Shown piece by piece: positions 12,868 through 13,817 of a stretch of 13,817 nt of DNA. The translations under genes were made by a program, and so were the position numbers. The DNA comes from a virus (Duplodnaviria; Heunggongvirae; Uroviricota; Caudoviricetes): IMG/VR virus record IMGVR_UViG_2645727640_000022, one strand, 5' to 3'. The first letter of the stretch is position 1, and every line of letters begins with the position of its first letter. The notes below the pieces were generated by a model. It searched no databases and had not been told where the DNA came from. It saw only the letters and a program-made list of their open reading frames with translations.

Positions 12868-13386
12868 TCAGAAGGCAGTCGGGCCTCTAAAGCATTTCGG
12901 GTTGAACAGATAGGAAGCCCTACAGTACGAACAAACCATATTAACGACTCGCCCAAGGCCTAGCTTAGTAACCAGACCTTCCGCTTGCAATATAGATTTT
13001 CTCTTTTGCTCGTAGCAATTGGGACAAATATAAACCGGAGATTGGTCAGCATCTGCAGAAAGCTTGCTGCGATAGACCAGAGTACCCCGCATAGGCTGGT
13101 AAAGTTCATAGCTCGCCGCTTCAGCGGCCCAGTTCTCTTGCTTTACTTTCTCATTTTCCAGTTCAACAATTTTCTCCTTAGCCGCAATCAGCAGCTCCTG
13201 AAGCGACATTTGCTGCATCTGAACATCCATTAGCTTATCGAGTAAGATGTGCGTCTTCTCTTTAACTGCATAGTCGACAGTCAGATTCTGAATCTCTCTT
13301 GCTGCTCCAACCGCGCTTTTAATTGCTCCTCCCACACCGGATAACGATTCAGTTATCCGGGAAAGAATTCCTTTTTCTTCAGACAT
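12868..13386 (-). CDS. Hypothetical coiled-coil protein with C-terminal C4 zinc ribbon; moron-like gene beside the immunity region
   Basis: ORF with predicted coiled-coil N-terminal half (…LQELLIAAKEKIVELENEKVKQENWAAEAASYELY…) and C-terminal CPNC…CSYC pair. The ORF track starts at 13413, but 13387-13413 lies inside the IS2 terminal repeat; the ATG at 13386-13384 (MSEEKG…) is the first codon outside IS2. Not recognised as any characterised family. Confidence 0.55.
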   Translation of the reverse strand: MSEEKGILSRITESLSGVGGAIKSAVGAAREIQNLTVDYAVKEKTHILLDKLMDVQMQQMSLQELLIAAKEKIVELENEKVKQENWAAEAASYELYQPMRGTLVYRSKLSADADQSPVYICPNCYEQKRKSILQAEGLVTKLGLGRVVNMVCSYCRASYLFNPKCFRGPTAF

Positions 13387-13817
13387 TGGATTTGCCCCTA
13401 TATTTCCAGACATCTGTTATCACTTAACCCATTACAAGCCTGCTGCCGCAGATATTCCCGTGGCGAGCGATAACCCAGCGCACTATGCGGATGCCATTCG
13501 TTATAATGCTCGAACGCCTCTGCAAGGTTCTTTGCTGCCGTTAACCCGTCTGGTTTGGGCATGATACTGATGTAGTCACGCTTTATCGTTTTCACGAAGC
13601 TCTCTGCTATTCCGTTACTCTCCGGACTCCGCACCGCCGTGTTCTTCGGTTCAAGTCCCAACATCCGGGCGAACTGGCGTGTTTCATTAGCCCGGTAGCA
13701 TGAACCATTATCCGTCAGCCACTCCACTGGAGACGACGGAAGATCGTTGCCGAAGCGGCGTTCCACCGCTCCCAGCATGACGTCCTGTACTGTTTCACTG
13801 TTGAAGCCGCCGGTAGT
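13387..13817 (-). mobile_element. IS2 insertion sequence, right end (partial; continues past the window end)
   Basis: 13387-13430 reads TGGATTTGCCCCTATATTTCCAGACATCTGTTATCACTTAACCC, matching my recollection of the IS2 right inverted repeat; the adjacent ORF matches the C-terminus of the IS2 transposase. Confidence 0.85.
13398..13817 (-). CDS. insD: IS2 transposase (OrfB / InsD, IS3 family DDE integrase core), C-terminal portion; 5' part lies beyond the window
   Basis: The frame is open from the window edge ([82 protein letters not shown]…[33 protein letters not shown]), matching the IS2 InsD C-terminus as I recall it. Confidence 0.85.

Follow-up and report, generated by a model that had tools for sequence, protein, structure and literature searches.

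The minus-strand open reading frame (ORF) next to the cI-type repressor gene of the window, that is, of the whole 13,817-nt stretch of Caudoviricetes DNA analyzed here, very probably encodes a member of the Rip1 family, in which a single protein constitutes the whole prophage defense and combines sensor and effector. Given its strong homology to a characterized system, we consider it a new member of the Rip1 family rather than something new. With this assignment, an "unknown ORF" would receive a specific annotation, that of a Rip1-type sensor-effector pore. An earlier note on this DNA had found no matching phage protein, a statement that no longer holds: a structure of the Rip1 protein of phage HK446 became available in February 2026, and hkaP of HK620 and orf25 of D3112 are relatives that have long been annotated.

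The assignment is based on a series of homology searches. In PHROGs, the ORF was matched by phrog_1244, a family of "unknown function" (E=2e-38), and the family profile matched 3,414 cluster representatives, nearly all of which have 150-175 aa and a single architecture. These matches show that the ORF is no chance reading frame. In the Protein Data Bank (PDB), the family profile had one match only, to 9oox, an entry named "ring interacting pore 1 (Rip1)" (E=9e-55). The same entry was the single PDB match in a phmmer search with the window protein (E=1.9e-46), in which residues 3-166 were aligned with residues 3-162 of the 164 residues of Rip1. Entry 9oox, released on 2026-02-04, contains Rip1 of Escherichia phage HK446 in complex with the small terminase of Enterobacteria phage T6. 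BLASTP revealed 51% identity to HK446 gp37 (E=5e-58) and 33% identity to D3112 orf25 (E=2e-17). The identity to HK446 Rip1 was 59% in the N-terminal helical half, 64% in residues 1-36, and 42% in the C-terminal sensor half. Furthermore, the predicted structure of the window protein can be superposed on the solved Rip1 protomer, indicating that both have the same fold.

Scans of the window protein against Pfam, NCBIfam, and PADLOC provided no significant match, and a Pfam scan of 64 family members resulted in scattered subthreshold coiled-coil or zinc-ribbon matches only. PADLOC-DB v2 (2023), a library older than the Rip1 report, returned 0 families at E<=1; since it contains no model of this family, it offers no independent database call of defense. 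The more than 3,000 cluster representatives are without a Pfam, NCBIfam, or PADLOC model and are consequently still labeled "hypothetical protein." The refuting outcome named in the earlier note, a confident match to a characterized non-defense family, did not occur; the confident match was to the defense protein Rip1. The full-length sequence homology to Rip1 likewise supports the former proposal of a single-gene, moron-like prophage defense factor.

The ORF is uninterrupted over 12868..13413 on the minus strand (181 aa), convergent with the cI-type repressor gene at 11766..12440 on the plus strand, in agreement with the first description of a single ORF opposite cI. A second ATG in the same frame, inside the ORF at 13386, yields a 172-aa protein. 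Because the ATG at 13413 and the first nine codons (MSGNIGANP; 13387..13413, minus strand) are part of the terminal repeat of the insertion sequence IS2, and because the RefSeq start of the IS-free gene in strain DEC5E corresponds to the ATG at 13386, the true gene is the 172-aa form at 12868..13386 (minus strand), and the nine surplus codons lie outside it. Of the range of 172 to 181 aa given before, the lower value was therefore retained and the upper one discarded. AlphaFold2, for which a 14-sequence alignment was used as input, predicted two helices (residues 7-34 and residues 39-90) and, C-terminal to them, a domain rich in beta structure, with a mean pLDDT of 76 and values of 78-91 in most ten-residue blocks of residues 41-160. 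Its N-terminal half (residues 7-90) is thus predicted to be helical, and its C-terminal domain holds the four cysteines C121, C124, C152, and C155, in agreement with the coiled-coil N-terminal half and the CPNC...CSYC element recognized previously. The four cysteines and Y93 were invariant in 64 diverse family members, in which L76, W86, L95, G101, Y105, S131, L133, and Q134 were conserved at >=90%; the window protein also retains the KSILQ motif and the conserved Y93/Y105. Helix 7-34 has the maximal hydrophobic moment of the protein (0.44), a value that was matched in 212 of 2000 shuffles and is thus not significant. No transmembrane segment was found in the window protein.

The remaining genes of the window form a prophage gene set that includes a Cro-like helix-turn-helix (HTH) protein, a Prim-Pol/DUF5906 primase, a Q antiterminator, a holin, a spanin, an endolysin-like ORF, the counterpart of which in the IS-free prophage belongs to glycoside hydrolase family 104, the small and large terminases, a portal protein, a Mu-F-like protein, and the cI-type repressor. 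The latter consists of an HTH and an S24 peptidase domain (Pfam HTH_26, 8e-12; Peptidase_S24, 2.6e-18), and the terminator scan placed its terminator at 12471-12495. No tRNAs were found in the window. A 94-aa ORF directly downstream of rip1 (12581..12865, minus strand) was taken as spurious, as it has no PHROG match and overlaps terminator hairpins. A 76-aa ORF between the primase and Q genes (8610-8840, minus strand) contains two CxxC pairs (CPRC...CSVC); it has no PHROG match and is labeled hypothetical by RefSeq in DEC5E.

Our account of Rip1 function is based on secondary sources, namely, section 5 of a review (PMC13434031) and a conference report, and on the title of the PDB entry. The review section summarizes the article by Patel et al. 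(2026, Nature 651:1060) as the primary description of Rip1, which is presented as a prophage-encoded, experimentally characterized anti-phage defense that is harmless alone. Escape mutations are reported there for the portal protein in Pseudomonas phages and for the small terminase in coliphages. According to the same section, cryo-EM showed an 11-mer ring of small terminase encircled by 12 Rip1 monomers, whose C-terminal half touches the ring and whose amphipathic helices at the N-terminus form part of a pore. Rip1 complexes are described to release dye from liposomes, and infected cells to lyse early in the absence of mature progeny (PMC13434031). In this account, Rip1 acts late, by premature lysis of the infected cell, and does not exclude superinfection, so that of the two functions offered in the earlier note, exclusion or defense, we maintain only the second. 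The Pseudomonas Rip1 gene is placed by the review between the small and the large terminase genes (PMC13434031).

By analogy, we infer that the window protein works as HK446 Rip1 does. The Rip1 monomers would be idle in the lysogen, and the trigger, late in superinfection, would be ring oligomers of the invader, namely, the small terminase in coliphages and the portal in Pseudomonas phages. Approximately 12 copies of Rip1 would dock around the ring through the C-terminal four-cysteine domain, and their N-terminal amphipathic helices would then be gathered to form a membrane pore. Cell lysis would precede the maturation of progeny and protect the population, which corresponds to abortive infection. 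What we determined for the window gene is its homology, its fold, its conserved residues, and a genomic pattern like that of a moron; trigger, stoichiometry, and pore are taken over from its published relative. The sensor half shares 42% identity with that of HK446 Rip1, less than the 59% of the N-terminal half, and may thus respond to another trigger. The small terminase of the prophage itself (Terminase_2 family), when compared with the PDB, matched SF6-type small terminases only and not the chains of 9oox, and is thus uninformative as to self-targeting.

In the window and in six other contexts, that is, in every relative examined, the gene was single and oriented opposite to all its neighbors. 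Its location varied: HK630 hkaP and HK446 rip1 are found between cIII and N, within the PL operon; the Yersinia copy adjoins the N-peptide gene; D3112 orf25 has the small terminase gene on one side and the large terminase gene on the other; the Photorhabdus copy is directly upstream of the small terminase gene; and the copy of P0003, a 66%-identical relative, adjoins an S24 repressor gene, as in the window. Because relatives reside in PL operons or beside terminase genes, the place adjacent to cI is one of at least three slots and does not represent a defining association; the cI-adjacent slot proposed initially thus applies to the window and to P0003, but not to the family as a whole. The P0003 context also contains an extra 143-aa gene between the repressor gene and rip1 (L007, 1551-1982), which is on the strand of the repressor and has no Pfam match. 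It occupies a rex-like position and is possibly another moron.

The IS-free relatives have an upstream cassette of ~100 nt, with the order CTTTTAACCACATCAGGCGAGGTGGTTCT..TGTACCCCTACAG..TAAAAT/TAATAT..CACCCCTACAGT..AGAGAG..ATG. This non-coding segment (minus strand of L001, 6947-7110; L004, 3400-3500; also in L003, L008, and L010) is common to the DEC5E-type allele, HK446, HK630 hkaP, Yersinia, and Photorhabdus, the protein identities of which are 28-60%. It comprises two ACCCCTACAG direct repeats, 34 nt apart, around the TAATAT/TAAAAT hexamer, as well as an AACCAC..GTGGTT hairpin. The cassette resembles a mobile regulatory module, and it might serve as a hitherto undescribed switch that regulates Rip1 in Enterobacterales generally. 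A consensus promoter scan upstream of rip1 in the IS-free locus called no native promoter, and we regard the conserved hexamer as a candidate -10 element only. Reading by eye of the aligned relatives revealed, in three of them (the DEC5E-type allele, P0003, and Photorhabdus), an A-run followed by a hairpin upstream of the cassette, which would be a terminator on the opposite strand. Together with this flanking hairpin and a hairpin downstream of rip1, the cassette would form a self-contained, insulated moron unit, the 5' part of which was cut away by IS2 in the window.

The downstream hairpin (12744-12767) is GC-rich, has a 9-bp stem, and can form on both strands; on the minus strand, UUUCAACUU comes after it. 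The 81-nt segment around it (12735-12815) folded with -33.5 kcal/mol on the minus strand (z = -5.0), as compared to z = -2.3 on the plus strand. The hairpin is probably the rip1 terminator on the minus strand, which makes the "private terminator" of the earlier note plausible. Downstream of cI, we noted an operator/promoter-like region on the plus strand (12502..12567), with TTGACA at 12525-12530, a 17-nt spacer, and TATAAA at 12548-12553; this site was missed by the consensus scanner because its -10 element is without the final T. The sequence ATCCNATAACGCATA is present at 11716, 12535, and 12553 (1.1 matches expected by chance), and 11660-11683 and 12502-12525 are inverted copies of a 24-mer. 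Operator-like repeats are thus common to the cI-cro intergenic region (11660-11730) and to 12502-12567, and two of them overlap the TTGACA-17-TATAAA site. This arrangement points to a second repressor-controlled early promoter, the transcripts of which would run antisense through rip1, like the PL transcripts in HK446. Such putative antisense early transcripts could silence rip1 on induction. For the "leader" between cI and rip1 (12441-12867), Rfam returned no match at gathering thresholds or at E<=10, and its folding energy was no better than that of shuffled sequences (z = +0.5), so that a structured regulatory RNA is unsupported. Three copies of GGTAAGC(G/C) are located at 12617-12706, within the roughly 300 nt of untranslated sequence that separate the putative promoter from rip1; neither an Rfam match nor a stable fold was found for them.

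The 5' side of the gene is taken up by IS2, an element of the IS3 family that reads toward rip1 and runs past the end of the window; its right end (13387..13817, minus strand) contains the 3' part of the transposase gene orfB (13398..13778, minus strand; Pfam rve_3 and rve). Homology to IS-free Escherichia coli prophages ends exactly at 13386, and homology to IS2 starts at 13387. In 4,443 of 5,426 E. coli genomes, the IS2 end has 100% identical counterparts, which are annotated as "IS3-like element IS2 family transposase" and are embedded in unrelated flanks. The own promoter region of rip1 is hence absent in this copy, the conserved cassette being replaced by the IS2 end at 13387; we consider this a lesion of this copy and not a mismatch with the Rip1 family. 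Since the native cassette was displaced, the sole evident source of any expression is read-through transcription from the IS2 transposase gene. In the IS-free relatives, replication genes (DUF2800, DUF2815, and DNA polymerase) follow beyond rip1, on the far side of the IS2 site. IS2 thus separates these genes from the promoter on the side of the repressor, which may have crippled the prophage.

This copy also differs at its 3' end. An alignment of the window and DEC5E with strain PS1Thumoskin9 at the DNA level (571 versus 570 nt in the span of the record) placed a frameshift at 12899..12901, where the window has a GGG run (CCC in the coding strand) and the 189-aa alleles have GG. The allele was present in 49 of the 5,426 complete E. 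coli genomes (~1%), in 45 of them in the 570-nt, 189-aa form; in three or four of the 49, the upstream regions of which are intact, it has the 571-nt form of the window. Due to the 1-nt insertion, the acidic/aromatic ancestral tail was exchanged for 11 unrelated residues, and the core domain remained intact. The ancestral tail (...RNALEARLPAEDENPGKAITDYDPYNQ, with its end ...AITDYDPYNQ) persists out of frame as ORF 12816..12956, which translates to the P0001 tail; the remnant proper (RNALEARLPSEDENPGKAITDYDPYNQ) occupies 12816..12898 on the minus strand. The ITDYDPY motif was also found in P0003 and P0011, relatives with 54-66% identity, and DYDP, DFD, or DWD echoes are present in a few distant ones. 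The window protein has 17 residues past the last CxxC, as compared to a family median of 22.

These two changes raise the question of whether the gene is still active. One reading is that rip1 is here a decaying, silent remnant of a family that is still defensive, having lost its promoter, regulatory cassette, native ribosome-binding site, and tail; we regard this as possible, although somewhat improbable. It is consistent with the fact that IS2 abuts the ATG, a junction found in 0 of 5,426 complete E. coli genomes, that the consensus scan found no sigma-70-like promoter on the minus strand of the IS2 end (13387-13817), that the lost ~100-nt cassette is conserved even between alleles with protein identities of 28-51%, and that the extra base removes a tail present in most E. 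coli copies (45/49) and in the 54-66% identical relatives. However, the 172-codon frame is otherwise intact and keeps all invariant residues, and the frameshifted allele persists in the genomes with intact upstream regions mentioned above. In addition, HK446 Rip1 (164 aa) is naturally devoid of the long tail, and a tail of 17 residues is within the range of the family. Expression is also conceivable: orfB is codirectional with rip1, its TAG stop codon (13398-13400) is 11 nt upstream of the rip1 ATG, and an AGGGG Shine-Dalgarno-like run is located 8 nt upstream of this ATG, so that read-through expression is possible, possibly with re-initiation after the orfB stop. A further idea, which we consider unlikely, is that IS2 has rewired rip1 as the 3' cistron of the transposase message, translated by re-initiation and freed of the cassette, with its two direct repeats and hairpin, and of the DYDPY tail. 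If true, a pore-forming defense would be under transposase control, perhaps with an altered trigger range or basal toxicity.

Two other readings concern the function of the family itself. The combination of a coiled coil and a C4 zinc ribbon resembles DksA/TraR, and a nucleic-acid-binding regulator of host or phage transcription (DksA/TraR-like or ClpX-zinc-finger-like) that forms no pore was therefore considered. Weak similarities point in the same direction, namely, a Pfam zf-C4_ClpX match (E=0.5), the annotation of one relative as "ATP-dependent chaperone," and FdhE_central matches in three relatives. However, all these matches are far under the curated cutoffs (10.7 bits versus 27 for zf-C4_ClpX), there was no match to zf-dskA_traR, and Rip1 is by a wide margin the only significant structural and sequence match, which makes such a regulator extremely improbable. 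We also judge it very unlikely that the protein is a classical superinfection-exclusion factor of the type of lambda Rex/SieB or P22 Sie, which would block the entry of DNA or early steps. The position of the gene next to the repressor in the prophage would suit this function, but the family is found equally often in PL operons or beside terminase genes, and the characterized relative is summarized in the review as sensing late morphogenesis proteins and killing the infected cell (PMC13434031). Moreover, the protein is without a transmembrane segment, and no Rex/Sie similarity was detected in PHROGs or PADLOC. Membership in the Rip1 family thus remains the preferred assignment.

Compared with known systems, several relatives and one unrelated system merit attention. 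D3112 orf25 represents the Rip1 slot of Pseudomonas Casadabanvirus and shares with the window gene the family (33% identity) and the orientation opposite to its neighbors; host and slot are different, and the trigger reported there by the review is the portal protein and not the small terminase (PMC13434031). HkaP of HK620/HK630, annotated "unknown," is a distant member, the gene of which is part of the PL operon region and is also opposite in orientation. The HK630 hkaP cassette is nearly identical to the HK446 rip1 cassette, whereas the protein is far more divergent (28% identity). In the literature searched, we found no function for HkaP, only unrelated papers. The Tab/anti-Tab system of Pseudomonas phage JBD26 is similarly a minus-strand prophage moron with its own promoter that hits the virion morphogenesis of the invader, and Tab fills the terminase-flanked slot that D3112 gives to its Rip1 homologue (PMC10884400). 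Considered as an identity for the window protein because of this shared slot, Tab was rejected, since it is an unrelated protein of 83 residues; it blocks tail assembly via the tape-measure protein, and anti-Tab is its dedicated partner (PMC10884400). No partner gene was evident beside rip1 in the window.

The closest characterized relative is HK446 Rip1 (gp37). It shares with the window protein 51% identity over the full length, the length class, the helical N-terminal half, and the four-cysteine C-terminal domain. Both are encoded by a single enterobacterial prophage gene that is directed against the flanking early transcription unit, and the ~100-nt upstream cassette of HK446 is common to the IS-free relatives of the window gene. 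In contrast, HK446 rip1 is flanked by N and cIII in a lambdoid phage, whereas the window gene is beside a cI-type repressor gene, in a phage type that has a Prim-Pol/DUF5906 primase and a family-A polymerase, unlike the lambdoid HK446. HK446 Rip1 is also without the ...ITDYDPYNQ tail of the ancestral allele of the window gene, and there is no IS2 at its promoter. None of these findings overturns the current understanding of Rip1. As natural variants, the IS2 junction and the frameshifted tail could reveal which portions of the gene and of the cassette are required, and the divergent sensor half is useful in mapping trigger specificity. With the window allele, the range of Rip1 is widened by a third prophage slot, the one beside the repressor, and by a phage type that is not lambdoid.
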